Origin: Squalus acanthias | Lineage: Eukaryota | NCBI GenBank assembly: GCA_030390025.1 | Contig: CM059432.1 | Span: forward strand, 51,400,001-51,464,000 | Direction of reading: 5' to 3' | Length of the DNA stretch: 64,000 nt | Shown: piece by piece, positions 1 through 49,945 of the stretch | Position numbering within the stretch: position 1 is the first letter of the stretch | Layout of the letters: the number at the start of each line of letters is the position of its first letter | Program-made: the position numbers and the translations under genes | The notes under the pieces: generated by a model | Told to the model about the DNA's origin: nothing | What the model saw: the letters and a program-made list of their open reading frames with translations, nothing else | Database searches by the model: none

Positions 1-690
1 TTAAAACTGTGCCATTAAGTGTATATTGCCTCTCCCTGTTCCTTCCACCAAAATGCATCACCTCACACTTCTCTGTATTAAATTCCATCTGCCACTTGTC
101 TGCCCATTCTGCTAGCCTTTCTATGTCCTGTTGCAGTCGATTGATATTATCATCACTGTTTGCCACACCCCCAAGTTTGGTGTCATCGGCAAATTTAGAA
201 ATTCTACTCTGTATTCCAATATCCAGGTCATTTTTATATATCCAAAAAAAGCAGTGGCCCCAGCACTGACCCTTGGAGAACACCACTGTCTACCATCCTC
301 CCGTCTGAAAAACAGCCATTTACCACAACTCGCTGTTTTCTGTCCTTAAGCCAATTCCTTGTCCAAGCTGCCACTGACCCACCTATTCCATGAGCCCCAA
401 TTTTGTTAACTAGCCTTCTATGTGGTACTTTGTCAAACGCCTTCCGAAAATCCATGTAGACAACATCCATTGCATTCCCTTCATCAATCCTCTCTGTTAC
501 TTCATCAAAAAATTCAATTAGATTAGTTAAACACGATTTTCCTTTTACAAATCCGTGTTGGCTCTCCTTAATTAGCTTAAACTTCTCCAAGTGTCCATTA
601 ATTTTTTCTTTGATTATTGTTTCTAAAACTTTACCCACCACTGATATTAAACTGTAGTTACTAGGATTGTCCTTCCACCCTTTCTTGGGC
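1..690 (-). mobile_element. CR1 (HER1-like) LINE fragment, RT region, runs off the left edge
   Basis: ORF 234..761 contains NPSNYSLIS..SQHGFVKGKSCLTNLIEFF..DVVYMDFRKAFDKVPH..GVLQGSVLGPLLF; revcomp FADDTKLG near 170-195. Same subfamily as the 40-44 kb copy. Confidence 0.95.
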
Positions 691-879
691 AGTTGACCCA
701 TATTTGTTGTAGCAACAATCAAACAGTAGCTTGCAATACTGTGGCTGCATCTTTCAGTCACTGTCTATCATATTCCTGCATACTAAAGCACAGCCGTCCT
801 GTTATTCAGCACAGTAACATCCCAGAGGTTGAGGTTTAGAGAGTGTTCACGCACTGGTTCACAACACTGTAGAACTGAA

Positions 880-1411
880 ATAAAAACAGAAAATGCTGGA
901 AATACTCAGCAGGTCAGGCAGCATCTGTGGAGACAGAAACAGAGTTAATGGTTCCGGTCGATGACCTTTCGTTAGAAGTGGAAAAGGTTAGATATGTAAC
1001 AGGTTTTAAGGAAGTACAGAGGCAGAGAAAGTGGGGGAGCAGAAAGAACAAAAAGGAAGGTCTGTGATAGGGTGGAGGGCAGAAGAGATTAAAAGACAAA
1101 AGGGATGATGGTGCAAGGCAAAAGGGGATGGTAATGGGACACGTAAAGAAACAAAAGATGGGTCTAGATGAGGTGTTAATGGGAATATCAGAATCATCAG
1201 CAACAGCTACCATCTAAAAAACTGGCAGCAGAGGTTATGGTCTGAAATTGTTGAACTCAATGTTGCTCAGAATTGACATGCAGACTGTAAAGTGCCTAAT
1301 TGAAAGATGAGGTGCTGTTCCTTGAGCTTACGTTGAGCTTCATTGCAACAGTGCAAGAGGCCGAGGACAGAGAGGTCAGAGTGGGAGTGGTCCGGAGAAC
1401 TAAACTGAATA
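880..1411 (-). mobile_element. Penelope-like element, 3' fragment (GIY-YIG endonuclease C-terminus plus 3' terminal region) with 14-bp TSD
   Basis: Minus-strand translation near 1240-1390: HSHSDLSVLGLLHCCNEAQRKLKEQHLIFQLGTLQ..NIEFNNFR. The 3' end resembles shark Penelope ends (..gatgctgcctgacctgctgagtatttccagcattttctgtttttattt). Direct repeat actgtagaactgaa at 866-879 and 1412-1425. Confidence 0.85.
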
Positions 1412-2000
1412 ACTGTAGAACTGAACATTGGCATTGAATGTGTTTCAGTACTGGTTCTACAGCTGTGCCCAAATGATATGCTCAGTGACCCTGCTTCTTC
1501 ATGTGCAAGTCAGGCTATGATACTTGCAAGTGAACATGGAAGTGAGGCAAGTAGAATTTTCATCCTGCGACAAATAGGGAAAAATCTGCATTTTGATACT
1601 TGCCTCCATCTTCAGGCATTAGTCCTTGTCCCCTAAGATCCAACTGCCTCTTTTTCCTTTCCTGCTGACTAATTCATAGATGGTGGAGTGGTGAAGGACA
1701 AAGGCATCATGAGAGCTTCCAATGCTCAGAATTGACATGCAGGATCCGTTGTTGGCCATCGCAGGCAATTTGCACAATTAGCAAGTGGATCCCCTTTCTA
1801 TTAATAAATGAGACTGGTTCCTCGAGTGGTGCCTACAGTGCCAGATGCTCTGTCTACCCAGAGTAGATCATTCTGTCACTTGCCCCCTCTGACAGAATGA
1901 ACTTTGTTTACTTTCCAGAAGTCTCCGAAATATAGAGATGCAGTACTTCTATTTTGTCCACTCTGGGCTAAAAATTCAAAAAATCCTGAAAACAGATGTG

Positions 2001-3186
2001 GGGATTGTGACAAGTGATCTGGCCGTGCCCGTTGAAAGTAGTGCAGGTAATATGCCACGTTCGTGCTGCCTGCTAATTAACATCATTGAAGCATTGAGCC
2101 CAGCGCTGAGAGCACTCTGGTTGGATGAACGCTCAGCAGGGGGTCCAAGTTCATGGGAAGTGATCTCTATTTAAAGCTAGCCTCCAGTTTGAAATACAGT
2201 CTGCACTTCTTAAAGGGAAGGTGCATTCTGAAATAAGCACCACATTGTAATTGTTGTCAAGGCAACTGTAAGGTAGCTATAGCTCAACAGGGCAGAGAAA
2301 GGGCACCTAGGTTCTCAGACGCAGCAATGTCTTCTCCAGCTGGGTCAGGATATGCAACCGTGCCTGTCCCCTGCTGTTGTCTCCTGTGATGCACCACCTG
2401 GCCTGCAAGAGAAAGGGAAATGCGTCAGTGAGTGTGGTTCAATGTGTTTGGGTGATGTGCCTGTCATGGTTTAATAGCTGGTATTGTGTGCAAGGTGTGA
2501 GATGTGGGTGTGAGGCTTGCAGCAGTGGTAAGTGCGTGAGGGTGAGGGTGACGTGAAGCTATGAATGTGAGGTATGAGTCGTGATTGATAGCGATTGCTG
2601 GTAGGTGAGTGATGGGGGTGTGGTGCATTGAGCAGTAGTGTAGTTATGGGCTATGGCATTTGAAGATGCATTCACTGACCTTGACCACTCGTGTGAGGTC
2701 ATTAAACTTCTTTCGGCACTGGATCCAGTTCCTCAAGGCAAGACTGCTGTCAGTGACCGCTTCAGCTATCCGCTCCCACTGCCTTCTTACTGTGTGTCTA
2801 GAGGGCCTCCTGCCCCCCTGCGGGTAGAGGACCTGGCTCCTCCTTTCAACCCCCTGCACTAAGGCCTCCAGTGCTGCGTCTGAGAACCGAGGTGCCCTTT
2901 CTCTGCCCTGTTGAGCCATAACTATCTTACAATTGCCTTGACAACACTTACAATGAGGTGCTGAATTCAAAAAGCACCTCCCCTTTAAGAAGTGCATTTA
3001 AAACTGGAGGCTAGTTTTAAATAGAGCTCACCGCCCACGAACCTGGACCCCCTGCTGAGCGTTCATCCAACCAGCAGTGCTCTCAGTGCTGGGCTCAACG
3101 CTTCAATCATGTTAATTAGCAGGCAGCACGAATGTCGTGTGTTGCCTGCACTACTTTCAACAGACGCGGGCAGATTTCAAGTCCCC
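2001..3186. mobile_element. Non-autonomous PIF/Harbinger derivative with about 310-bp inverted arms (foldback)
   Basis: About 2017-2327 is the diverged reverse complement of about 2873-3175; the interior carries Myb/SANT exons; no transposase is present. Confidence 0.85.
2330..2919 (-). pseudogene. Harbinger Myb/SANT-like DNA-binding protein, exon 1 (2919-2680) and truncated exon 2 (2402-~2330)
   Basis: MAQQGRERAPRFSDAALEALVQGVERRSQVLY..W..IAEAV..RNWIQCRKKFNDLTRVVK, then donor gtcagt. Acceptor tttctcttgcag at 2403. Exon 2 is frameshifted (..VVHHRRQQQGTG). Confidence 0.85.
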
Positions 3187-3631
3187 TGGTGTCTGCTTCT
3201 TCCTGGTCTCCAGTTTATGTATGTCTCTCTAGGTGTCTGTGTCCATATCCAACTGCTGATTATCTCCACCGCCCCCCCATGATCTGTCATCCTGGATCTA
3301 GTTCCTCCATGCCCTCCTCCCCACTTATCTAGTTTAAATGATTATCAAAAGCTACCTTAATGTTCTTTGCAAGTCTCTTTGTTCCTAGTTGGTTTAGGTG
3401 CAATCTCTCTTCTCTGTACGGGCCCTTTCTGTTCTAAAAATATTCCCAGTTATTTATAAAGGTAGCATAGTTGCTTTCACACTATGTTCCCAGCCACTCG
3501 TTAACATCCTCAACTTTCATTTGTGAACTTCCCTTCATTCCCAAAGCCTGGAAGTATCTCAGAGAACATTACTTTGCATTCCCTGTCTTTGAATTTTTAG
3601 GCAATCTTTGTGCATGTGCCATTTAAGGCAT

Positions 3632-4590
3632 CTTTCCAGCCCTGCCTCCGCTGCTGCTGTAAGATGTGCAATTACTGGAGGGCCACCTCCGGTTCTCTCC
3701 CTCTCTCTGTTGTTGTGGGCTCTCTTCTCCTGCAAGGAGGGAAAGAAGAGAAGTTTGAGTGAGAGTGATTGAATGAGTGTAAGCAATGGATGGGTTACAT
3801 CTGTAGAGGGTGACTATGAGGAAGTGGGGTTCCAATGCCAAATGGCCTCCTTCTGTGGTGTTAATTGCTATGATTGCATTAGGATGAGGGTTAATCAGAT
3901 GGGGATGTGAGTATCTACATAGAGCGAGAGGGATGGGTGGACATGCAAGGTATGTTGGTGTGAGGAATGATGTGCAGGAGTAGGCTTGGGAAGGCAGAGT
4001 GATGGGGATGTGTTGACAGGCACATCAGGATGAAGGTGAGTGTGGCATTGCACTCACTTTTCCTGACCTCTTCAGATCATTGAAGCTTTTCCTGCACTGT
4101 ATCCAGGTCCTCCTCACCACATCCCTGCTGCTGACCTCCTCAGCTATATCCAGCCAGGCTCTTTTTGTTGCTTGTGGAGGTCTCCTTTGCCTGTCAGCAG
4201 GGAAAAAGACTTCCCTGCCTGCTCTGACAGCCTCCACCAGAGTATGCAGCGAAGAATCAGGAACCGGGGTGCAGCCCCTCTGCCTTTGGCTATTCATCCT
4301 TCCAAAGTTTTAGCTGTACTGTGGCCTTTCTTTGACACTTTCCACCCTCCTCTGGCAATGTTCAAGAGAGTTGAGTGCAAGGCTGCTTTAAATATGGGCG
4401 CTGGAAATGAGTCATCAATGCCGTCTTCAGGTCCGCACCATTTAATAGGGCCGGGAAACGCGCATGAGTCTTTCAATTGGGGCCATTAAGTGAAAGTCGC
4501 TCTGAGCAGCGCATTGCTCAGCACATCGTGTTCCCGACCCGCTACGCTGCCCACATGCACACAATCCAACACAAAGGTGAAAATTCCGGC
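3632..4590 (-). mobile_element. Harbinger fragment: one terminus plus spliced Myb/SANT-like gene (exon 1 4297-4058, exon 2 3729-~3632)
   Basis: MNSQRQRGCTPVPDSSLHTLVEAV..AWLDIAEEVSS..RTWIQCRKSFNDLKRSGK|gtgagt. Acceptor ccctccttgcag|EKRAHNNRERERTGGGPP. Terminus aaaattccggcc at 4579-4590. Confidence 0.85.
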
Positions 4591-8624: not shown

Positions 8625-9153
8625 GGGGGAAAAATTGGAATGGTTTGCACCTCTTGTTAGCGCCACTGTGATGTCATCACCGTGCGCAGCGCCCCGTTTG
8701 CGCCCCGGCCACAAACTTCGCTTGCGCCCCCTGACCTATCGGCAGACGATATGTGCGACAGGGTCAGGGGGGCATTTTGGCAGCGGTGGCGGCGCTTCTT
8801 AAAGGGCAGATGTCGGGCGGCCATTTTTATTTTGGCCGACTGCCAGCACCTGCCCTCTTTCCCTTCTTTATGCGGGGTGCCGGCCGCGATCGCTCAGCCC
8901 GACACTCCTCTTGAGTGCCAGGATGTTTCCACGGCACCCGCTCCCTGGTGGTCCAGCTTGCAGCGCTAGGCCCCTCCCCTTTAATCAGGGGAGGAGGCCT
9001 GCAATGATGTGGCGCTACGTGCCGCTGCGCGTGGTGCTGATGGTTCTAGTAGCACCCCACCTCCTGCTTGGGGCGCAAACCTTTTCGGGGCGCTAAAATT
9101 AGTGCCCTGGCGGCGTTAGCGCCCCAAAAGGGGTGCCACCCAATTTTTCCCCC
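8625..9153. mobile_element. Harbinger MITE related to the 44211-48236 element
   Basis: Perfect 14-bp TIR gggggaaaaattgg / ccaatttttccccc; 3-bp TSD ttc (8622-8624, 9154-9156); inverted homolog of 48248-48858. Confidence 0.9.
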
Positions 9154-18926: not shown

Positions 18927-20654
18927 GGGCTGAATTTTGCCGGTGCTCATAGTGTGGGTTTGGAGGCAAGTCTGCTGTCAAAATCGAAATGATTGACAGC
19001 GGGTTGGGAACCCACTCCGAACCCACCTCCATGTAAGTTTCCAAAGTATCAGGTCTGCGATTTCAGAACAGATCCGACACCAAGCAGCAGGGGAGGCATT
19101 TAAGATACTTAACTGCTTGTTAAGTGCTTGTTACATACTATTTTGCCAGCCTTTTTCTATTTTACCACATTTTTAATGGGGTTCACGTTGTTCGGAGATC
19201 ACGTGAGGTAAGTAGGTCGGGTTCTCTATGTCTCCCCATTGCTATGAATAGGTGACAGCTGCAAAAGTGGTATGGAAGCTATCATTTCACAGCTGGTCAC
19301 TTTCCAATGTCAGAAGCTTGAGCCTTCAGGACTTGGAAGACACTTTTGAGCTGTATTTAGTTTGAAAGTGTTTGGAGTAAACTCTCTATCCACTGTCACC
19401 TCCTTGGAGCAAGCTCTCTCACCATTGACAGATCGTTTCTGTCATCTCAAATTCAGCTGCCATCTATTACAGCAACGTCGCTTCCCTTGAAAAAATCTCA
19501 CCTTGGTCCCCTGAATCCCTCCACGATCAGCCCCAACACCATCATCACCAACAACAATACCAACCTTCTCTGCAATCACCTGATGCTGCACAGGACACAG
19601 GGCATCAGCACCCGACAACATTGCTGCCCGGGAGGCCAGCGATGGCATCACTATGGCCAGATTTACTTCACTTGACGCTGTACACCCTGGCTGCCACATG
19701 ATGCACCAGGTTAACACCACCCCACACCATCACCATAAAGAATTCCTACAATGACCAAGCCATTCATTTCACACTCATCACCATTGCGGGGGGTACCGTT
19801 ATGCCTCACCATTCATTGCAACTCACTAAGACAATTCCAAGGGTGAGCACAGATCTGTCCAAGAATGCAAAGTGATGGAAATATAGATTTCAATGTTTGA
19901 CAATACATTAACAGAAACTTCACATGAACATTGGCTAAACCACCCAAATGCCTACCCTTGTGTGTTGTCAGTTCGTATGCTTGCACTAGGATGAGGGTGA
20001 ATGTGAGGGGTGGCTAGCGAGATGGGGAAGTGATAATGTAGATTGAGAGGGATGGGTGGAGGTGCAAGGTAAGTTGGTGTGAGTAAAGATGTGCAGGAGT
20101 AGGGTAGGGAAGGCAGAGTGATGTGGATGTGATGACAGGCACAGCAGGATGAGGTTGAGTGTGGCTCGGCAGTAACGTTTCGTGATCTGCTCAGATCATT
20201 GAAAGGTTTGCACCACTGCAGCCTGGTCCTTCTGACGACATTTCTGCTTTTGCTCTCCTGTGCAATGTGCAACCAGACTGCGTTGGTGTCCTGGGGAGGT
20301 CTCTTCCGCCCTTGGAAGGGAAGAGAACCTCCCTGTGGGCTGTGACTCCCTCCATAAGCATATGGAGGGAGTCATGCGAGAGCCTGGGTGCAGCCGTGCT
20401 GCAGAATACTGAAAGCACAACTGTCAAAATGAATGCGGTCGTTGTGCCTTTAAAGAAACTGACTGATGACGCATCACCAAATGACGTCATCAGACCCGCT
20501 TCCTTTTAATTGGCCGGGAACCCTGCAGGGCGGGCTTAACAAGCCCTATCAATGGAAAATCCTTTTTACAGAGCGGCTGCAGCCGGGAATGGGACTGGAA
20601 CCCGCCAACCACCTCTCCTGCCGCGATCCCGCCTCCGCTGACAAAATCATGGCC
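18927..20654. mobile_element. Internally deleted Harbinger element with decayed Myb exon 1 on the minus strand (~20400-20172)
   Basis: Degenerate TIR gggctgaattttgcc / gacaaaatcatggcc. Minus-strand frames give AAPRLSHDSLHMLMEGVTAHREVLFP..WLHIAQE..RRTRLQWCKPFNDLSRS, homologous to the 4297-4058 exon. Confidence 0.8.
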
Positions 20655-33831: not shown

Positions 33832-34418
33832 CCATAGAATCATAGAAATTTATGGCACAGAAGGAGGCCATTCGGCCCATCTTGTCCGTGCCAGCCGACA
33901 AAGAGCTATTCACCCTAATCCAACTTTCCAGCTCTTGGTCCATAGCCTTGTAGGTTATGGCACTTCAAGTGCATATCCAAGTACTTTTTAAATGTGATGA
34001 GGGTCTCTGCCTCTGCCACCCTTTCAGGCAGTGAGTTCCAGACCCCCACCACCCTCTGGGTGAAAACATTTCTCCTCAACTCCCCTCTAAACCTCTGACC
34101 AATTACTTTAAATCCATGCCCCCTGGTTATTGGCCCTTCTGCTAAGGGAAATATGTCCTTTCTATCCACTCTATCTAGGCTCCTCATAATTTTATACACC
34201 TCAATTAGGTCTCCCCTCAGCCTCCTCTGTTCCAAAGAAAACAACCCCAGCCTATTCAATCTTTCCACATAGCTAAAATTCCCCAGCCCAGGTAACATCC
34301 TCGTAAATCTCCTCTGTACCTTCTCTAGTGCAATCACATCCTTCCTGTAATGTGGTGACCAGAACTGCACACAATATTCTAGCTGCGGCCTAACAAGTGT
34401 TTTATACAGTTCAAGCAT
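33832..34418 (-). mobile_element. CR1 LINE 3' fragment
   Basis: ORF 33915..34418 (LYKTLVRPQLEYCVQFWSPHY..); tail catagaatcatagaa. Confidence 0.96.
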
Positions 34419-34571: not shown

Positions 34572-35663
34572 ATGGGTGGTCTCATTGTGCTGGAGGATGA
34601 GGAAGCGAAATAAAGAAGACACCACAGAGAAGGAGAAGCTGTTAGAAGAGGGAGGAGGAGGAGGGCACTGAGCAGGAGACCGTGTCCATAGAGAGTCCTC
34701 AGGGAGTACCACTCCTACATCAACTTTAGTCAGGAGCAATGTATGAGGTGCCCTCGTTTCACCAAGGAGGCTGTCATCGAGATATGTCACCTGCTGCAGC
34801 CACAACTCAAACCCCAAACCAGGGCATGGACAGCACTACCTGTGGCTGTCAAGGTTATTGTTGCTCTCAACTTTTATGCCACGGGCTCCTTTCAGGCTGC
34901 AACAGGTGACATCAGTAACATCTCCCAGTTCGCAGTGCACTGATGTATCTGGGAGGTCACCGAGACTCTACGCCAGGAGAAGCACCTACACTCCTTCCCT
35001 ATTGACAGAGGGAAGCAGGACAAGCGAGCACTAGGCTTCACCCACATTCAGGCTTTCCCAAGGTGCCATAGACTGCACACGTATTGCCTTGCATGCTCCC
35101 TATTATCAGCCTGGCACTTGTACAGAATTTGTACATTCTGTGCCCGATATCCTGGCAACAGTCATGACTCTTTCATCCCGCGCCAATCCTCTGTGCTGCC
35201 TTTATTCCAACCTTGCTGCCAAGTAACAGGCTGGCTATTGAGCAACAAGGGCTATCCCCTCCGGATATGGCTCATGACTTTGTCAGGAAGCCGTGCACAG
35301 CTGCAGAGCATGTCTACAATGAGAGCCATACTGCCACAAGGACCATTGTTGAGCAAACAACCGTCATGCTCAAGTAATGCTTCCTCTGCCTGGACCATTC
35401 CAAAGGAGCTTTGCAGTACACCCTGAGTGGGTATCCAGATTTGTTATCATTTGCTGTATGCTACACAACTTTGCTATCCTGAGGAACCAGCCTTTACCAC
35501 CACCTGGGCAGCAACAAATGCAGAGGAGGAGCAGGAGGCAGAGGAAGTGGAGGAAAAAGAGAAAGAGGAGGAGGAGAAAGAAAAGCGTGTGAAGCAGCGA
35601 CCACCAGAGCCCCTACCTGCCCACGCTCAGAGAGATCAACTCATCAAGGAGCGCTTCACCTAA
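34572..35663 (+). pseudogene. Harbinger (HARBI1-like) DDE transposase pseudogene
   Basis: RFTKEAVIEICHLLQPQL..LPVAVKVIVALNFYATGSFQ..GDISNISQFAVH; AIDCT; ARYPGNSHDSFI; GWLLSNKGYPL; IVEQT; CCMLHNFAI; acidic C-terminus. Multiple stops and frameshifts. Confidence 0.92.
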
Positions 35664-36185
35664 ATCAGCCCTCCAATTTCCCATTCATCAACAGTCCCAC
35701 AATCCTTACAACTTTCCTTACAACCAGCATCCGATTTCCTTCCTTCACTCCAGACTTAAGGGTGTTGCCGTCACTTCACTACAAAGACAAACGCCAACAC
35801 CAAATCCAGAAGAAAAACCAAGTTTATCAAACAAATATTGTCAAATCATGTCAGCATCGACAAAAAATGAACTAATCACCTTCATGCAAGCCCTTAGTGC
35901 CTGTCTTATGTATTCATTTTCCCATCCTCGTGCTCCTACAAAGTGTTTCCCGAGTGGCTAAAGCTTAGGAGGTGGAAGGCTGCTGATCTTCCATTGAGGA
36001 TACTTCAAATGGCCTTGGAGGACAACCTCGAGCAGCTCTGGGCCTCGAGTGCCGCCCTCCCCCTGCAGACTGCAGCATCTCCACGTGGGCTGCAGCAGTC
36101 TGGGCTGGTTAGCTGAGTGCCACGATCAGGAGCACTGGCAGAGTGTCTGGAGGGGGAGCAGGCATGCTGTCATTCTGAGAGAGTT

Positions 36186-36870
36186 AGTTAACACAGAAAG
36201 TTAACATGCAGGTGCAGCAAGCAATTAGGAAGGCAAATGGTACTTGGCCTTTATTGCAAGGGGGTTGGAGTACAAGAGTAAAGATGTCTTGCTGCAATTG
36301 TACAGGGCTTTGGTGAGGCCACACCTGGAGTACTGTGTACAGTTTTGATCTCCATACCTAAGGAAGGATATACTTGCAACGAAGGTTCACTAGATTGATT
36401 CCTGGGATAAGAGGGTTGCTATATGAGGAGAGGTTTAGTAGATTGGGCCTATACTCTCTGGAGTTTAGAAGAATGAGAGGTGATCTCATTGAAACATGTA
36501 AGATTCTGAGGGGGATTGACAGGCTAGATGCGGAGAGGTTGTTTCCCCTGGCTGGAGAGTCTAGAACCAGGGGTCACAGTCTCAGAATAAGGGGTCGGCC
36601 ATTTAGGACTGAGATGAGGAGAAATTTCTTTGCTCAGAGGGTTGTGAATCTTTGGAATTCTCTACCTCAGAGGGCTGTGGAGGCTCAGTCATTAAGTATA
36701 TTCAAGGCTGAGATCGATTTTTGGACTCTAAGGGAATCAAGGGATATGGGGATCAGGCGGGAAAGTGGAGATGAGGTAGAAGATCAGCCATGATCTTATT
36801 GAATGGTGGAGCAGGTTCAAAGGGCCAAATGGCCTACTCCTGCTCCTAATTCTTATGTTCTTGTGTTCTA
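36186..36870 (+). mobile_element. CR1 LINE 3' fragment
   Basis: ORF 36374..36793; tail ttcttatgttcttgtgttct. Confidence 0.95.
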
Positions 36871-40020: not shown

Positions 40021-40408
40021 GGTTGCAATATTTGCTTACATAACAACAATCACTGCACTTCAAAGTTAATTCAGTTTATGTGTTGGTCTTTGAGACCAGA
40101 AGGAGCGGACCTGGAGGGAGCACAGCGCGAGCGGAGCAGTTAAAAGGAGCGGCAGCAACTCAACAGAGGCAGTTTTTGAAAAAGTGATATCAGAGTAAAA
40201 AAAGTGACGTCGGCACAAGGGAAGGAGCTGATTGGTGAGTAGCTGGTGAGTGTATTTTATTTTAAGTTTATAAGTTTATTTCTGCTAATTTAGTTAATAG
40301 CCTATTAAATAGAGGGAAAGAGCTGATTGGTGAGTCGCTGGGGAGTGTTTTCTGTTAAGTTTTAAGTTTATTTCGGCTGGGTTAGTTTTTTGTCTATTAA
40401 CTAGAGGT

Positions 40409-41359
40409 ATGGCAGGGCAGCTCAGTCCCGTGGAGTGCACATCCTGTGCCATAAGGGAAGTCCTGGACACTTCGTGTAGCCTGGATGACCACATGTGCGG
40501 GAAGTATCGCCAGCTACAGCAACTTGAGCTCCGGGTTTCGGAGCCTGACCGGTGGCTGGAGTCACTGCGGTGCATCCGTGAGGCTGAGAGTTACATGGAT
40601 AGCACGTTTCTAGAGGTGGTCAACCCGCAGCTTAAGAGTATGCAGGCAGAGAGGGAATGGGTGACCGCCAGACAGAAGAGGAGGACCAGGCAGGTAGTGC
40701 AGGAGTCCCCGGAGTGCATCACGCTCTCCAACCAGTATTCTGTTCTGAGGACTGGTGAGGGCGATGGTTCCTCTGGGGAGTGCTGCCAGAGTCAAGTCCA
40801 TGGCACCAAGGGTGGCTCTGCTGCACAGGGGGGGAGGAAAAAGAGTGGAAGAGCAATAGTGGTAGGGTTTTCGATAGTTAGGGGAACAGACAGGCGTTTC
40901 TGTGGCTGTAGACGTGACTCCAGGATGGTATGTTGCCTCCCTGGTGCCAGGGTCAAGGATGTCACTGAACGGCTGCAGGACACACTGAGGGGGGAGGATG
41001 AACAGCCAGAGGTCGTTGTCCATATCGGTACCAATGACATAGGAAGAAAGAGGGATGAGGTCCTGCAGGCAGAGTTTAGGGAGCTAGGAGAGAGATTAAA
41101 AAGCAGGACCTCAAAGGTAGTAATCTCCGGATTACTCCCAGTACCACATGATATGTGAATACAGGAATAGGAGGATAGAACAGATGAATGAGTGGCTGGA
41201 GAGATGGTGCAGGAGGGAGGCTTTAGATTCCTGAGGCATTGGGACCATTTCTGGGGAAGGTGGGACCTGTACAAGCCAGACGGGTTACACCTCAACAGAG
41301 CCGGGACCAATATTCTCACGGGGAGGTTTATTTGTGCTGTTGGGGAGGGTTTAAATTAG
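40409..41359 (+). pseudogene. CR1 ORF1p: zinc finger/coiled coil plus SGNH esterase domain, frameshifted near 41150
   Basis: CTSC..CGKY zinc knuckle; AIVVGFSIVRG (GDS-type motif altered), CLPGARVKD, HIGTND, and downstream DGLHLN in the shifted frame. Confidence 0.88.
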
Positions 41360-41529
41360 CTTGGCAGGGGGATGGCCACCAGCACATAGGAGTAGAAAAG
41401 AGAAATAAGGTGCATAAAAGAGTGAGTGTGTTGGATAGTACTAGAGAAGATAGTACTGGAGGCGGTAGTTGTACCATATTAGATAGGAGCAGACTAAGAA
41501 AGACTGTGAAAAATTCAAAAATGGGTTTA

Positions 41530-44140
41530 GAATGCATGTACGTAAACGCACAAAGTGTGGTGAATAAGGTTGGTGAGCTACAAGCGGCAATATGATGTTG
41601 TGGCAATAACGGAAACGTGGCTTAAAAACAGGGCACTTAATATTCAAGGGTACAAGGTGTTCAGAAAAGATAGGGAAGGAAAAAAGGGAGGTGGGGTGGC
41701 AGTGCTGATTAAGGAAGACATTGTAGTGTTGTAAAGGGAGGATGTTCTTGAGGGGACAAGGACAGAATCCATTTGGTTATAGTTGAGGTGCAAAAAGGGT
41801 ATGATCACGCTATTGGGGGTATTCTATAGGTCTCCAAAAAGTGAGAGGGAGGTAGAGGAGCAAATCTGCAGGGAAATCACAGAGATATACAAGAGCTATA
41901 GAGTGGTGATATTGGGGGACTTTAATTACCCAAATATCGATTGGGATAATGCTAGGGTAAAGGGAAAGGAGGGGGAGGAATTTCTGAAATGTGTTCAGGA
42001 GAATTTCCTTGACCAATATGTTCTTGGCCCAACTAGGAAGGAGGCATTGCTGGATCTGGTGCTGGGGAATGAGGTGGGCCAGGTCGAACAAGCGTCTGTG
42101 GGAAAACACTTGGGTACGAGTGATCATCGTATCATAAGATTTTGATTAGCAATGGAAAGGAGCAAGGAACAATCTAGAGTGGAACTTCTAAACTGGAATA
42201 GGGCTAACTTCAATGGGATGTGAAAGGATCTAGCCAGAGTAAAATGGAACCAAAGACTGACAGGAAAAACTGTAATGGAACAATGGGTGATCTTTAAGGT
42301 GGAAATACCAAATACAATAAGTTGAGAGGGGATGTGAAGATGAAAATAAGATTGGCAAAGAGAGAATATGAGAGTAGAATGGCCGCTAACATAAAAGGGA
42401 ACCCCAAAATCTTCTACCGGCATGTAAACAGTAAGCGGGTAGTAAGAGGCAGCGTGGGGCCTATTAGAGACAAAGAAGGTGATATATGCTTAGAGGTGCA
42501 GGACAAGGCTAGAATACTCAATGAGTACTTTGTTTACTAAGGAGGTCGATGCTGACAAAATATCGGTAGAAGTGGAAAAGGTAAAAGCAATGGAAGGGGT
42601 GAAAATTGATAGACAGGATGTACTAGAAAGGCTGGGTATGCTTAGAGTGGACAAGTCGCCTGGTCCGGATGGCTTGCATCCCAGGTTGCTAAGGGAATTG
42701 GGGGAGGAGATAGCGGAAGAGCTTGCCATAATTTTCCAATCTTCCCTAGATGCGGGGGAGGTGCCTGAGGATTGGAAAGTGGCAAATGTAACACCATTGT
42801 TCAAGAAAGGGTGTAAGGACAATCCTAGTAACTACAGGCTGGTCAGTTTAACATTAGTGGTGAGTAAAGTTTTAGAAACAATAATCAAAGAAAAAATTAA
42901 CGGGCACTTGGAGAGGTTTAAGCTAATTAAGGAAAGCCAACAAGGATTTGTAAAAGGCAGATCGTGTTTGATTAATCTAATTGAATTTTTTGATGCGGTA
43001 ACAGAGAGGATTGATGAAGGGAATGCAATGGATGTTGTCTACATGGATTTTCAGAAGGCGTTTGACAAAGTACCACATAGAAGGCTGGTTAACAAAATTG
43101 AGGCTCATAGGTGGATCAGTGGCAGGTTGGATAAGGAATTGGCTTAAGGACAAAAAACAGCGATTTGTGGTAAATGGCTGTTTTTCAGACTGGAGGATGG
43201 TGGACAGTAGTGTTCCCCAAGGGTCGGTGCTGGGGCCACTGCTTTTTTTGATTATATAAATGACCTGGATCTTGGAATACAGAGTAGAATTTCTAAGTTT
43301 GCCGATGACACCAAACTTGGGGGTGTGACAAACAGTGATGATGATACCAATCGACTGCAACAGGACATAGAAAGGCTAGCAGAATGGGCAGATAAGCGGC
43401 AGATGGAATTTAATACAGAGAAGTGTGAGGTGATGCATTTTGACAGAAGGAACAGGGAGAGGCAATATACACTTAATGGCACAGTTTTACAGAGTGTGCA
43501 GAGACAGAGGGACCTGGGAGTTAATGTGCATAGGTCCCTGAAGGTGGCAGGACATATTGAGAGAGTGGTTAACAAAGCATATGGGATCTTGGGCTTCATA
43601 AATAGGGGTATTGAGTACAAAAGTAGAGAGGTTATGCTGAATCTTTATAAAGCGCTGGTTAGGCCACAACTGGAGTATTGCGTCCAGTTCTAGTCACCAC
43701 ACCTTAGGAAGGATGTGAAGGCCCTTGAAAGGGTGCAGAGGAGATTTACCAGAATGGTTCCGGGGATGGGGGATCTTAGCTACAAGGACAGGTTGGAGAA
43801 ACTGGATTTGTTTTCATTAGAGCAAAGGAGGTTGAGGGGTGATTTGATAGAGATGTACAAGATTATGACGGGTTTGGATAGGCTAGATGGGGAAAGGCTG
43901 TTCCCACTAGTTGATGGTACAAGGACTAGGGGACACTGATTTAAGGTTTTGGGCAAGAGATACAGGGGGATGTGAGGAAAATCTTTTTTACGCAGCGAGT
44001 GGTGATGACCTGGAATTCGCTGCCGACGGAAGTGGTGGAAGCGGAGACACTCAATGTTTTCAAGGGGAGACTGGATAGACACTTGAGGGAAATAAATTTG
44101 CAGGGCTACGGGGATAGAGCGGGGGAATGGGTCTGACTAG
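41530..44140 (+). pseudogene. CR1 ORF2p: AP endonuclease plus reverse transcriptase, with stops, frameshifts and an internal deletion (~42310)
   Basis: CMYVNAQS, VAITETWL, GVFYRSP, LGDFNYPNIDW, LLDLVL, SDH, KSPGPDGLHPR, DFQKAFDKVPH, VPQGSVLGP, FADDTKL. Confidence 0.95.
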
Positions 44141-44570
44141 ATTGCTGTACAGAGAGCTGGCACAGACTCGATGGGCCGTATGGCCTCCTTCTGTGCCGTT
44201 ATGATTCTATGGGGGAGAAATTCGGTATTGCCCCGTTTGGGGCGCAATTATTGGCTGGGCACAAAGTTTAGCGCCTGGCGCTAATTATCGTCTCTGACTG
44301 CAACTTGGCCTCTATCGCCCCTGGAGGTAATTTGAGCGCTAAATCAGGCGCTACACATCTGTCTTAAGGCGCTAACTCCGAGGAGCAAGGCGCTACCTCA
44401 GAGCGCTGGCGAAGCTCAGGTGATATCAGTTAGCTATGGAACACAGACAGACTGGCGCCGGCCAGTTCTTAAAGGGGAGGGTCGATCTTGCTGTCCAGCC
44501 ACACCCTGCTCATTGCAGCCTTGAATCTCGGCCTGGAGAGACCTGTACATCAATTCTGCTGGAACCAACA

Positions 44571-46335
44571 ATGGAGAGGCTCAGGGAAAGAGCTCAGTGC
44601 TTCAGCGACCAGGTCTTGGTGGCTCTGGTTGGCGTTGTGGAGCGGCGAAAGGCAGTGCTCTACCCACAGAGTGGCAGGAGGCCATTGCCATGCGAATACA
44701 GAAGAGTCTGGAGGGAGGTGGCTCAGCACATCTCCTCCAGGAGCCTGGTGCCCAGGACCCACACCCAATGTCGGAAGAAGTTCAACGACCTCACTCGGGT
44801 GGTCAGGGTGAGTGGCTGCTTTTCAATACCTCTCCATCCCTCCATCTCAACTTCACTCTGTGCCCAGAGGGTTTAAAAACCCCAAATGCCCAACACTCAT
44901 CCAAGACCGATGGCCATCTCATAAAACACACACACACACATTCGACACTTTGCATACATTAAGGGCTATTCAACTATGGGAGGCACATCAGGCAAGCACA
45001 TGGCTGCACATTCACTCAGACACCGTCCTTTTTCTTGCAGGCCAAGCTATCTCATAACAGGCGGCAGCAGCAATGCACTGGAGGAGGACCAGCTGACCTA
45101 CACACCCTCAGCCATTTGGAGACGCGCATGCACAGGATCGTTGCCAGCCAGGTGATAGGTGCCGTGGCCGCTGGAGAGGTCGACCCCCTTGGGGACAACA
45201 ATGGTATGTTCATCAGCTTTCTCTCCTCTCTCATTCCACTTGCCCCTCACAACACCAGCCTTTTACACTTTCAATCCAATTTACTAAATGTCTCCAGTCC
45301 TTGCTCCCTTACTGTTCCCCTGTCCTGACACTAAAGCCACTCTTGTACCTCCCTGCTTTCAGATCGTGAACCACCAGCTGACCAGCCTGTCCCTCAACCA
45401 ACCAGTGGGAGTGACGCCCCAGGCGAGGAGGAAGAGGAAGCCGGAGCCTCACCGCCTGCGTCTCCCGAGGGAGCCCATGCCCACACTGGGACCACGCCTT
45501 CCCTAGAGGGGAGCAGGGGGGTAGGGTCTGATGAGGACAAAGCTCCGGGACCCAGCGGGCTGCAGCAATGCCATGGGAGTAGGGAAGCTCGGGGGCCATA
45601 TCCCCGGAGGGCGAGTAGGCAAGCGAGTCCTGCTGCATTGGACTCAGAGGAGGAGTGCGTCATTGCGGAAATGAATAGCCAGGCCTTGAGCTCATGGGTG
45701 CAATGGCAAGGGTGCCCGAAAGCATTGATGGACTGGCTAGGAGTGTGGAGCAGTCTGCTGCAGCACAGGCCGACGCAACGCAACCGCTTAGTGCTGCAAT
45801 TCAGTCACTGACTGCTGCCATGCCGTCTCAGACTGCTCTCATGCAGTCTCAGATTGATGCAACGCAAGCTCTGACTGCTGCCATTGTCGCTGGTTCGGCT
45901 ACATTGCCCCAGGACTCTCACGGTGCCGTAGCAGGCCATCAATCTGTGCTCGAGCAGATTGCTCCGGATGCTGATGTGCTGCCCTGTGGGAGTGCCATTG
46001 TGTCGGTCGAGCAGGGAGGTGCTGTCCTCTCTCAAGATGACAGCAGTCCTGCTCTCACCACTGGCACTTCCCCATTGCACTTGCCACGGCCTGCAACACA
46101 GCCAGCCCAGACTGCTGCCGCCCATGCAGAGTTGGTGCAGTCTGCAGCCAGGGCCTCCAGGCCCAGAGTTGGTTCAGGGCATCCTTCAAGGGCATCTGTA
46201 GTCTCTGCATCTGACATTCAGCAGTCTTCCACCAGCCTTGCTGCAGCCACTGGGGCCCCATTACGGAGGAGCAGTAGGGTGGGAAGGGGGGAAGTGCGCA
46301 GGGAATGGAGATTACCCACGAAGGGCAAACAGTAG
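44571..46335 (+). pseudogene. Harbinger Myb/SANT-like DNA-binding protein, 3 exons (44571-44807, 45041-45203, 45363-46335), exon 3 frameshifted
   Basis: MERLRERAQCFSDQVLVALV..VWREVAQHIS..RTHTQCRKKFNDLTRVVR|gtgagt; tttcttgcag|AKLSHNRRQQQCTGGGPADLH..|gtatgt; ctgctttcag|DREPPAD..EEEEE..PGPSGLQ; Ala-rich coiled-coil-like ORF 45694..46335; aataaa near 46343 and 46481. Confidence 0.88.
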
Positions 46336-46642
46336 AGGTCTAAATAAATGGTGGGAATGTTTGTAGTAAAGGTCGAGGTTCGTGTGATTACATTTGTTTA
46401 CTGTTTTGGCATTTATCTCCATCTTGTGAGAACCAGTTCTGTTAATTCACGGTTGTGTTTGTTTCTAATTGTTTGTCCTGAATAAATGACACACACAGAG
46501 TTTGTTACAGAAAAAAGGTGTTGTATTCAAAATTTACATTTTTAGCCTTTGGAATTATTCCAGCTTTGGCTGGCTATAGGGGGTGTGGGTTGCTTTCCAT
46601 GATGTTGTTCTCAATGCCAGAAGCCATCTTCTGAGTAGGGGC

Positions 46643-47785
46643 CTAGAAGCGGCTTCTTATCAGCTGTTGACGGACGACCCTTGCAGTTTCAACATTGTGC
46701 ACCTCCCTCCCACGTTGGTGCTGCTGCTGATCATCCTCCTCATCTTCCTCCTGCTCTTCCTCCTCCTAAGGTGGTGCACCAATCCCTGGTGGCATTGGCT
46801 GGGTCCTCAGGATTGCCAGGTTGTGAAGCATGCAGCACACAACTATGAACAGGGAGACTCACTCAGGAGAGTACTGCAGGGCTCCTCCTGAGTGGTCCAG
46901 ACAACGGAACCGTTGCTTCAGCACACCGATCGTCTGCTCAATTATGTTCCTGGTGGTGATATAGCTCTCATTATACCACAGCTCAGCAGGGGTGTTGGGG
47001 TTACGGAGCGGTGTCATCAGCCAGGTGCAGAGTGGATAACCCTTGTCCCCGAGGAGCCATCCACTTGGGTGATGCGGTGCCTGGAAAAGGTCTGGCGCAG
47101 GATGAAGGCATCGTGGCTGCTGCCAGGATAGCGAGCATTGATGGCGAGTATGAGCTGTCTGTGGTCACAGACCAACTGCGCATTTAAGGAGTGGTAGCCC
47201 TTGCGGTTTCGGAAAACTCTGCATTTTCATGTGGTGCCCGCAATGCCACATGCGTGCAGTCAATGGTGCCCTGCACCATGGGGAAGCCCGCTATCCTAGC
47301 AAATCCACATGTGCGTTCATGCTGTTTGGCCCGGGTCATGAGGAAACCGATGTACTGGCGTCTTCTTTTATACAGGGCATTTGTCACCTCCCAGATACAA
47401 CAATGGACAGCGAACTGGGAGATATTGGCGATGTCCCCAGTCGATGCTTGAAAGGAGCCGCTGGCATAAAAATTCAGACCAATGTCACTTTCACTGCCAC
47501 CGACAAAGACATCCTGGTCCTCAGTTGAGGCTGCAAATCTGGTTGCAGCAGGTGGCAGAGCTCAGTGACCACCTCCTTGCTGAAGCGCAGCCTGCGCAAA
47601 CACTGCTCCTCAGACAAATGAATGTAGGAGAATTGCTCCCGGAATACCCTGGGAGGGCAAAATCTCCTGTGCAGAGGCCTGTTGGCCCTCCTCCGTCTGG
47701 CCATGTTTGCCACTTTCTCTCTGCGTCTCTGATGCCTCCGATTCTGCAGGTGCAGGACAATGCCCCGAATCAGTGCAGCCCCCAA
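46643..47785 (-). pseudogene. Harbinger (HARBI1-like) DDE transposase, full-length but disrupted
   Basis: [109 protein letters not shown]. All three catalytic motifs are present. The start is TTG, and there are at least 3 frameshifts and 2 stops. Confidence 0.95.
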
Positions 47786-48247
47786 AGTCTCTTCTAAATC
47801 GATGCAAGGAAGGTCAAATCAAAAAGAATCTGCAAAGTGCTGCTCCTTCACACAGCGTTGAATCTCTCTAGAAGTCTCTCTCTCTCTCTCTCTCAGAATG
47901 CGTAGTGCAAAAATGTCGCTGACAAAAAAAGGCAGGAAGTGGCTGCCTTTAAATAGCGCTCCCCCTCTACCAGTCGTTGCTAGCGGCAGGTGGAAAGGCA
48001 GGGGGCGCTACTCAATATCCGGTCCGGGGCGCTACCGGGGTGTTGCACGCTCGACTGACGTCACGATCTGCGGGCGCAGGAGTTCGTGGCGGTAGTGTTT
48101 AGTGCCGCCGCAAAATGTCTGGTCAATTTCGCGAGCGGTGCAAACATCGCTGCGCCCGGGCGCTAGTTGCTTTGCGCCCCATTAGCGCCCTATTAGGGCG
48201 CTAACGGGAGGTGCTAATCAACCAAATTTTTCCCCCTATGACTCTAT

Positions 48248-48858
48248 GGGGTAAAAATTGGTTAGCGCCCCATTTGGGGCCAATTTTCCCAGGTAGTGCC
48301 CCGAGAGGGAGGAGGGGTGCTATTGGAAGCGGCCCGCATCCCTCTTGGGGCGCTGCGAGCCAATATCGCTCCGTGGTACTGCAGGCCTTCCTCCCCTTAT
48401 TAAAGGGGAGGGGCCTGGCGCAGCGCATCCCGGCGCCCACCTGGGCCACCAGGGATCGGGAGTGCCGGCAAACGAGTCCGGCACTCAAGAGGAGTGCCGG
48501 GCTCACGGAGAGCAACCGGCACCCCGCGGGGGCGCTTCACGGGGGACGGGGACAGCAACGGGGGCAGGTGTTGGCAGGCGGCCAGCAACAAAAATGACCG
48601 CCCGCCACCTCCCCTTTAACTAACGCTGCCCCAGCCACAGGTAGGCCCCCCTGACCCCGTCGGACATAGCGTCCGGCAGTAAGTTGGGGGGCGCCACCCA
48701 ACATTACAGCCGGGGCGTGAGCGGGACGCTGTGCAAGGCGATGACGTCATCACCGGCAGCACAGCACCACGCGGCACTAACGGTTAGCGCCGCCGCTAAC
48801 CTCCCGCTGAATTTCGCGGGTGCTAACGGGAGGTGCAAATCAACCGAATTTAGACCCC
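48248..48858. mobile_element. Harbinger MITE of the same family as the adjacent element
   Basis: Ends ggggtaaaaattggtt / aaccgaatttagacccc. Its last ~37 nt (gctaacgggaggtgcaaatcaaccgaattt) match 48200-48236. Homologous to 8625-9153. Confidence 0.88.
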
Positions 48859-49945
48859 ATGACACTATAACATTTTTGGGAGACGTGATAAGGTGCTATT
48901 TAAATGGAAATCTCTTTTATTGATGCAAAATCAACAAACTTGTATAAGTTTTGTATTCGAAATTATTCCTCAGTTGTCCTGTGAATATCTACATATTGAA
49001 ACTATCTCCAAAGATTTGGTGAGCATCTCTTTTGAACTTAAACAGTTGGAAAGAATTATGGTTAACATAATTTTTGTTGTATTTGTGTTACGTTTTGAAT
49101 ATTTTGATTACTACTTGTGAAAACTAGCTTCCCTAAACTTGACAGGTACCTAACTTAACATGCACAGTTGAACCTAAATACTTGGGTTAATAATTGTCTC
49201 TCCACCAAATTAATTCAGCTTTCTTGCACTATTGAGCTGAACTTCTCCCGCAAAATTGTGTCTTTCATCTGCTTCTCCAGGGACATGATACACGCCTAGA
49301 TTGTATTGAAAAGTTGTGCTTGTTTGTTCAATATATATATGATTAGCCAAAAATAAAAATAAATTCAATAAAATTGCAGTTAATAAGGATATGTTAAATG
49401 ATCAAGGTATAGAACACAAACTATTTCTTTGGAAAACAGATTATTTTAATGGTAAGAAAAGTGTTTGCATAGATGAGCTATTATTGTGCACAGTGAAGTG
49501 ATATTGGTAAATGTTTCAGTTAGGAAAATTATGTTTTAATTATATACATGCAAACAGCTGATTATGAAAAGCTCCTATGTTAGTAATTTAACCAGCCTGT
49601 ACTCAACAATGAGGATTTACCCATTGCTTCTCCTGCCTGAGAAACTCTCTCCCCCAGACAACATGGAACTCTACCCCTTATCTTCAAAAGTTAATTACTT
49701 GCTGAGGCAAGATTATTAGACCATAAACAGGGTCATGGAAAAATTCTGGCTTGACTTTTGGTACCTAATACTATTTCCCTCCAAGGTTATCTTTGTTGTC
49801 ACCAGAGTTAATTTCATTAGCTGTCTATCCTTGTTACAGTTGTCTACAGCTGCATCCCGTTGTTATACCTCCTAATATATAAAAAAATATTATATTTCAC
49901 GCTTCTTTCTGTACCTTTATAGATTTCTGTTGACCATGTTATCCA

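Follow-up and report, generated by a model that had tools for sequence, protein, structure and literature searches.

The closest described system is Harbinger3_DR, an element reconstructed from zebrafish, in which, as in Ping/Pong, two proteins are needed according to the passages of PMC2836001 and PMC9179366 drawn on here, and the Myb-like protein binds both the element ends and the transposase, which it also carries into the nucleus. The target preference of vertebrate Harbingers is an extended palindrome of 15 bp in the consulted part of PMC2836001, and for Harbinger3_DR it is given as AAACACCWGGTCTTT in that of PMC3016246. The excerpts of PMC4482050 used here divide the wider set of PHIS elements into PIF/Harbinger, NuwaI and NuwaII groups, set apart by their target site duplications (TSDs), and state that such elements are absent in sharks; the corresponding part of PMC9179366 reports none in elephant shark and calls for other cartilaginous fish. 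For the grey reef shark, the accessible text of PMC12498223 names Tourist/Harbinger as the commonest DNA transposons, at class level only and without family structure or target site, and that of PMC5381603 has nothing further on shark Harbingers. In a full-text literature search, which excluded most subscription journals and Repbase Reports, nothing came up on how elasmobranch Harbinger families are built, on insertion into CR1 tails or on stacks with an 11-bp spacing.

We analysed a 64,000-nucleotide stretch of the Squalus acanthias genome (hereafter ‘the window’, to whose numbering all coordinates refer), in which a Harbinger element with two convergent genes occupies 44211-48236. Its 16-bp terminal inverted repeats (TIRs; left, 44211..44226 on the plus strand; right, 48221..48236 on the minus strand) agree at 14/16 positions when the ends are compared, just as an earlier, sequence-only reading of this DNA had proposed, and at 15/16 in the family consensus; they are shorter than the 25-50 bp described as usual in the sections of PMC9179366 consulted. 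A three-exon Myb gene on the plus strand faces a single-exon DDE transposase on the minus strand, again as that reading had it, and this pairing of a DDE with a Myb/SANT open reading frame, the 3-bp duplication and a length close to the ~4.1 kb quoted as the mean are all shared with PHIS elements as portrayed in the available part of PMC4482050. With its DDE transposase, separate Myb/SANT gene, TIRs, 3-bp TSD and palindromic target, the element belongs to PIF/Harbinger in the broad sense; the architecture is textbook, and the family adds to a known superfamily. Both genes are broken in the window copy, which is a dead, ordinary member of a once-active two-gene family. Beyond what was first noticed at this locus, we describe its insertion in the tail of a CR1-type LINE, a second element 11 bp downstream and a target preference for the family as a whole. 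Our overall account, in which we have good confidence, is that a dead PIF/Harbinger copy, likely of a shark or ray family, lies in a CR1-type octamer tail beside a second Harbinger-like element, and that such tails accumulate members of the family at 11-bp intervals; the probable reason is that the palindrome preferred for landing is matched by the tail once in every 8 bp.

The element is not a chance arrangement, since a DNA search of the animal's own genome (3.7 Gb; 37 of 36,611 candidates scored) found near-full-length matches at 86-91% identity in 20 of the 36 other scored candidates, most of which run to the same ends. Of 30 loci examined for a consensus, 14 were dropped because their best alignment missed one end, which left 16; the majority consensus of these is 4,098 bp long, with copies 94-97% identical, the window copy at 95.8%, and 8 of the 16 full copies flanked by a 3-bp TSD. 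The expectation that a consensus with open frames could be rebuilt was right as to the frames, which are open in both genes; the rebuilding itself drew on other genomic copies and not on this copy alone.

Within the Myb gene, exon 1 (44571..44807, plus strand; 237 nt, phase 0) carries the ATG, present in 16/16 full copies, and the Myb domain, for which Pfam Myb_DNA-bind_5 (PF13873) gives the match that had been asked of it (E 5.4e-7, above the curated cut-off). Exon 2 (45041..45203, plus strand; 163 nt, phase 1) has its AG/GT kept in 16/16 copies, and exon 3 (45363..46335, plus strand) holds an acidic stretch, 21-nt (7-codon) repeats at 45771-45884 and a low-complexity tail. Both introns are GT..AG, the window's spliced frame is open through both junctions, and the four splice-site dinucleotides are conserved in 14, 16, 16 and 16 of 16 full copies, which substantiates the canonical, phase-compatible splicing that had been suggested; the spliced majority consensus is open for 462 aa. 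Among contigs built from four of eight sequencing runs presumed to be RNA, one contig from run X3 gives a weak hint of splicing, in that exons 2 and 3 are joined in it at the expected GT..AG, its short side being only 23 letters; the intron-1 joint is absent among the 15 of 53 contig joints listed. An annotated sawshark model (P0010) gives an ungapped 47% match across junction 1, and a search for longer annotated Myb relatives gave a single match (P0121, 45% over exon 1). The repeats in exon 3, five in number, have a 7-residue period, and on that basis suggest a coiled coil.

The transposase (46643..47785, minus strand) is a single exon whose frame is open for 386 aa in the majority consensus of the 16 full copies. 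In the window copy the ATG has been lost (the start reads TTG), two stops are premature, and the frame is shifted three times, by losses of 1 bp near 47478 and 47216 and of 13 bp near 47091. Myb exon 3 has also lost 13 bp, near 45688, which puts it out of frame, and a further 1-bp deletion lies near its stop. These frameshifts, stops and the missing ATG, read against the 16-copy consensus with its open frames, uphold the view that this copy is disabled and belongs to an autonomous Harbinger family with two genes. The catalytic D, D and E, within IDCTH, GDKGY and IEQTIG, are retained here as had been recognised, and in 14, 14 and 16 of 16 copies. Pfam DDE_Tnp_4, proposed as a check, matches two window fragments (E 3.5e-12 and 7.5e-9) and the open frame of another copy, L005 (E 2e-33). 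Pfam gave nothing below E 0.001 for Myb exon 2, Myb exon 3 or the transposase N-terminus, and a PDB sequence search gave no meaningful match (best E 0.024). A further copy, L004, was considered as an intact element, as its frames look intact; it was rejected because the transposase start is missing.

We also weighed whether the locus might be a domesticated host gene pair of the HARBI1/NAIF1 type, or an element that still functions. Database relatives are named ‘putative nuclease HARBI1’, the catalytic triad is kept, and the pooled ratio of non-synonymous to synonymous change (pN/pS) falls below neutral. Against this stand the TIRs and the duplication, over 100 nearly complete transposase frames at other places in the genome, and the broken state of both genes here; where domesticated HARBI1 and NAIF1 are single-copy, TIR-free, intact and under selection, this locus is none of these. 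The depletion itself becomes clearer once non-CpG changes across the 16 copies are divided into those private to one copy and those shared: private changes give 1.12 for the Myb gene and 0.78 for the transposase, shared ones 0.59 and 0.29, and the neutral expectation, taken from the non-coding parts with all sites counted, is 0.90 for the Myb gene and 0.86 for the transposase. With private changes near neutral and shared changes depleted, we read this as selection on the source elements followed by decay after insertion, and we give the host-gene or functional-element explanation next to no credence in comparison with a dead copy of a formerly mobile family.

As for the named relatives themselves, nearly all of those among the 120 protein matches listed (of 241) are shark or ray models of ‘putative nuclease HARBI1’, the closest listed being from Pristiophorus japonicus (75% over 79% of the query); many other elasmobranch models lie at 50-66%, and teleost and lungfish models at 41-50%. 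None of the 120 listed exceeds 75% identity to the query. The models are automatic, many per species, and are probably other Harbinger families rather than a host gene. The proposal of an elasmobranch family is thereby supported, an elasmobranch host being likely because the protein relatives are nearly all shark and ray models. Sequencing runs from three further organisms contain 0.42-0.44 of the words sampled from 44211-48236, which we note as a lead that the family is common to several species.

A protein search (107 candidates scored) returned full-length candidates 86-91% identical to L005, its own locus aside, many of them with a transposase frame free of stops; no copy among the 107 is closer than 91% to the L005 protein, and nothing thus points to a very recent burst within this subfamily. 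A sister subfamily lies at 85-88% to the consensus and looks younger, as many of its members are 98-99% alike; it occurs at L207, L214, L220, L224, L230, L238, L239 and L240, stacked beside older copies. The exact 25-nt left end is found 2,281 times in the genome, mostly on deletion derivatives of ~890 bp that join consensus position 388 to 3597. In a sample comprising the first 100 sites of a 30-nt end pattern on one contig, an exact end match being required, 63 sites are this derivative, 19 are long and 18 are other. Its breakpoints correspond to window positions 44597 and 47772 and fall in a short shared TCAG, and the same joint is present in contigs of public sequencing runs.

Other Harbinger remains lie in the window. 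At 34590-36200 is an older relic of the same convergent layout, with a plus-strand transposase that is ~51% like the family consensus protein and matches Pfam DDE_Tnp_4 over 34944-35426; DNA resembling Myb exon 3 spans 35919-36183 and is cut off by a LINE fragment. In the region 1625-2904 the minus strand carries both a Myb exon-1-like stretch (2680-2904, 63%) and, at 1625-1901, fragments of a transposase, which is unlike the convergent layout and points to either a rearranged relic or another family. More Myb-like fragments, together with a 74% relative of the MITE described below, lie at 4067-4258, 20186-20320 and 8669-9003.

The TAT noted earlier does flank both ends of the window copy; it is no signature of the family, the TSD of which is variable. 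Right ends could be located for 63 of the 100 sampled sites (one call, at 116 bp, is probably spurious), with a perfect 3-bp duplication at 33 of the 63 and without one at 30. The 33 comprise 17 different triplets, 31 of them with a central A or T (N-W-N). TWA, which marks the narrow PIF/Harbinger group in the excerpts of PMC4482050, accounts for 4/33, and CWG, which marks NuwaI, for 2/33, so that there is no clean fit to these TSD-defined groups. The target information is concentrated in the six bases that adjoin the duplication on either side, the flanks being palindromic (about A-R-A-S-W-Y, duplication, R-W-S-T-Y-T; majority AAACAC...GTGTTT). From 93 non-tail sites (7 tail-like ones removed) we built a target matrix of 151 half-sites, the majority half-site beside the duplication being AAACAC.

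Harbinger3_DR, as represented in the sources quoted above, is similar in having a DDE transposase and a Myb-like gene, non-autonomous derivatives, a 3-bp duplication and a 15-bp palindromic target. The left six flanking bases of that target (AAACAC, then CWG, then GTCTTT) are the majority half-site here, and the whole scores ~2,200x on this family's matrix; the centre is CWG in the zebrafish element as opposed to a variable triplet here. As judged from these sequences, there is a flank code common to the two, and the centre differs. For Harbinger3_DR, the consulted passages of PMC3016246, PMC2836001 and PMC9179366 describe neither tail targeting nor stacking.

The window copy sits at the 3' end of a LINE (at least 40334..44199, plus strand) comprising ORF1, endonuclease, reverse transcriptase and 3' UTR, which we take to be CR1 from its domain layout and tail. 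Pfam places an esterase-like ORF1 at 40334-41158 (Lipase_GDSL_2/OSK, below curated cut-offs), Exo_endo_phos_2 at 41783-42145 and RVT_1 at 42494-43693. The octamer tail unit TATGATTC and the left duplication TAT (44208-44210) together span 44200..44210 on the plus strand, and a remnant of the tail (48859..48870, plus strand) resumes past the inserted elements. Further LINE tail 10-mers at 33834, 58662 and 61843 lie beside fragments like the 3' end of the host LINE, with neither this element nor the 611-bp MITE matched alongside.

Across the genome, the tail 10-mer precedes a left end 54 times in one orientation (ATGAYTCTAT) and 45 times in the other (TAGARTCATA), in total 99/2,281 (4.3%), ~96% of left ends having no exact tail 10-mer before them. 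ATGAYTCTAT occurs 117,257 times, for which uniform placement would give 0.036 left ends against the 54 seen, a ~1,500-fold excess (one orientation). In the observed phase the matrix gives the tail a score of 409x (C type) or 91x (T type), as against less than 2x in each of the other seven phases. With the C/T split taken from the first 100 listed tails, the independent-position matrix predicts at most ~6.5 hits against 54, and sequence fit as modelled therefore leaves ~8-fold unexplained; C-type tails make up 43 of the 54, against 66% predicted. This excess over the upper bound of the matrix gives room for active recruitment, in which insertions would be attracted, beyond base preference, by the shape of the DNA, by the chromatin of CR1 3' ends or by Myb protein bound to the end of a resident element. 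The matrix, however, has been blunted by post-insertion mutation and by its size of 151 half-sites and should for these reasons underpredict the best sites; moreover, the phase, the C-over-T bias and the 8-bp offset discussed below all follow from a matrix made without tails.

Downstream of the big element, an 11-bp spacer, TATGACTCTAT (48237..48247, plus strand), comprises its right duplication, five tail bases and the left duplication of a second Harbinger-like element, a non-coding 611-bp MITE (48248..48858) whose right duplication lacks one base. The MITE belongs to another, multi-copy family (among the 40 of 9,123 candidates that were scored, 39 are further copies at 83-90% identity), is 93.6% identical to the majority of 15 copies, and over its last ~230 bp is 67% like the right end of the big element. 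Such neighbours are recurrent: an end-to-end pattern allowing 0-14 free bases gave 746 matches, against 0 in a reversed control, and 51 of the 60 distinct junctions among 100 listed rows have an 11-bp spacer. Scaled up, this amounts to an estimated ~450 stacked junctions, where random placement of up to 100,000 ends would give fewer than one at any one spacing. A matrix from 91 sites, neither tail-borne nor stacked, gives a second insertion its highest score, 6x, at offset 8, against 3.3x and 1.6x at the adjacent offsets; an offset of 8 corresponds to an 11-bp spacer.

By hand count, 30 of the 60 listed spacers are identical to the tail 11-mer, TATGA(C/T)TCTAT, 16 are within two changes of it and 5 are unrelated. 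Such uniformity could also arise if pairs had moved as composite transposons with the spacer inside, or had been duplicated. In the 40 stack loci fetched, which cover 44 of the 60 junctions and mostly 11-bp spacers, the partners instead differ in family, age (identity) and orientation, each having its own duplication; in 21 of the 40, an element end is bordered immediately on its outer side by the 3' end of the host LINE, and at the window locus tail sequence is present to the left and right of the pair. A strict motif test found no LINE end in the other 19, in part because the outer ends lay outside the retrieved DNA. We thus consider a composite or duplicated origin very improbable and favour independent insertion. 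Three of the loci (L212, L214 and L231) are triplet stacks, and these, together with the number of junctions relative to chance, again lend something to the suggestion of active recruitment to tails, which on balance we regard as a possible, rather unlikely, contributor beside simple sequence match.

At L206 (586-2394), two inverted ~890-bp derivatives enclose an 11-bp spacer whose direction is the reverse of that of the tail sequence flanking the pair at left and right, a pattern that would result if recombination between the inverted copies had turned the segment round. The stack at L218 (1535-2460) lies in a different tail-like repeat, of ATAGAAAC units, which suggests that other tails are also used.

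Drawing on these observations, and by analogy with Harbinger3_DR and Ping/Pong, we propose the following sequence of events. The Myb protein would bind the element ends and recruit the transposase, both proteins presumably being required in this family too; the transposase would then cut and join with a 3-bp stagger, and intact source elements would have moved the window copy and the ~890-bp derivatives in trans. We infer that each insertion into a tail spares the next unit, so that a later element may land 8 bp further on and leave a spacer of 3+5+3 bases. More speculatively, and with slightly less than even credence, we suggest that this is an undescribed elasmobranch Harbinger lineage that has kept the flank code of Harbinger3_DR and relaxed the central triplet, and that the self-overlap of its target at 8 bp makes CR1 tails into renewable ‘landing strips’, where older and younger families queue at 11 bp (the ~450 junctions), perhaps aided by recruitment to resident ends.

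The analysis offers a fully resolved Harbinger family, likely of a shark or ray, with thousands of ends, as against the surveys that report absence in the parts of PMC4482050 and PMC9179366 consulted. Its 15-bp target, with flanks like those of the zebrafish element around a different centre, could help to show how Harbingers choose their targets, and the tail preference and 11-bp stacks present a case in which one class of transposon builds hotspots for another. Should the wider reading be true, the stacks would record the order in which the families were active and would provide a handle on which protein reads the target.
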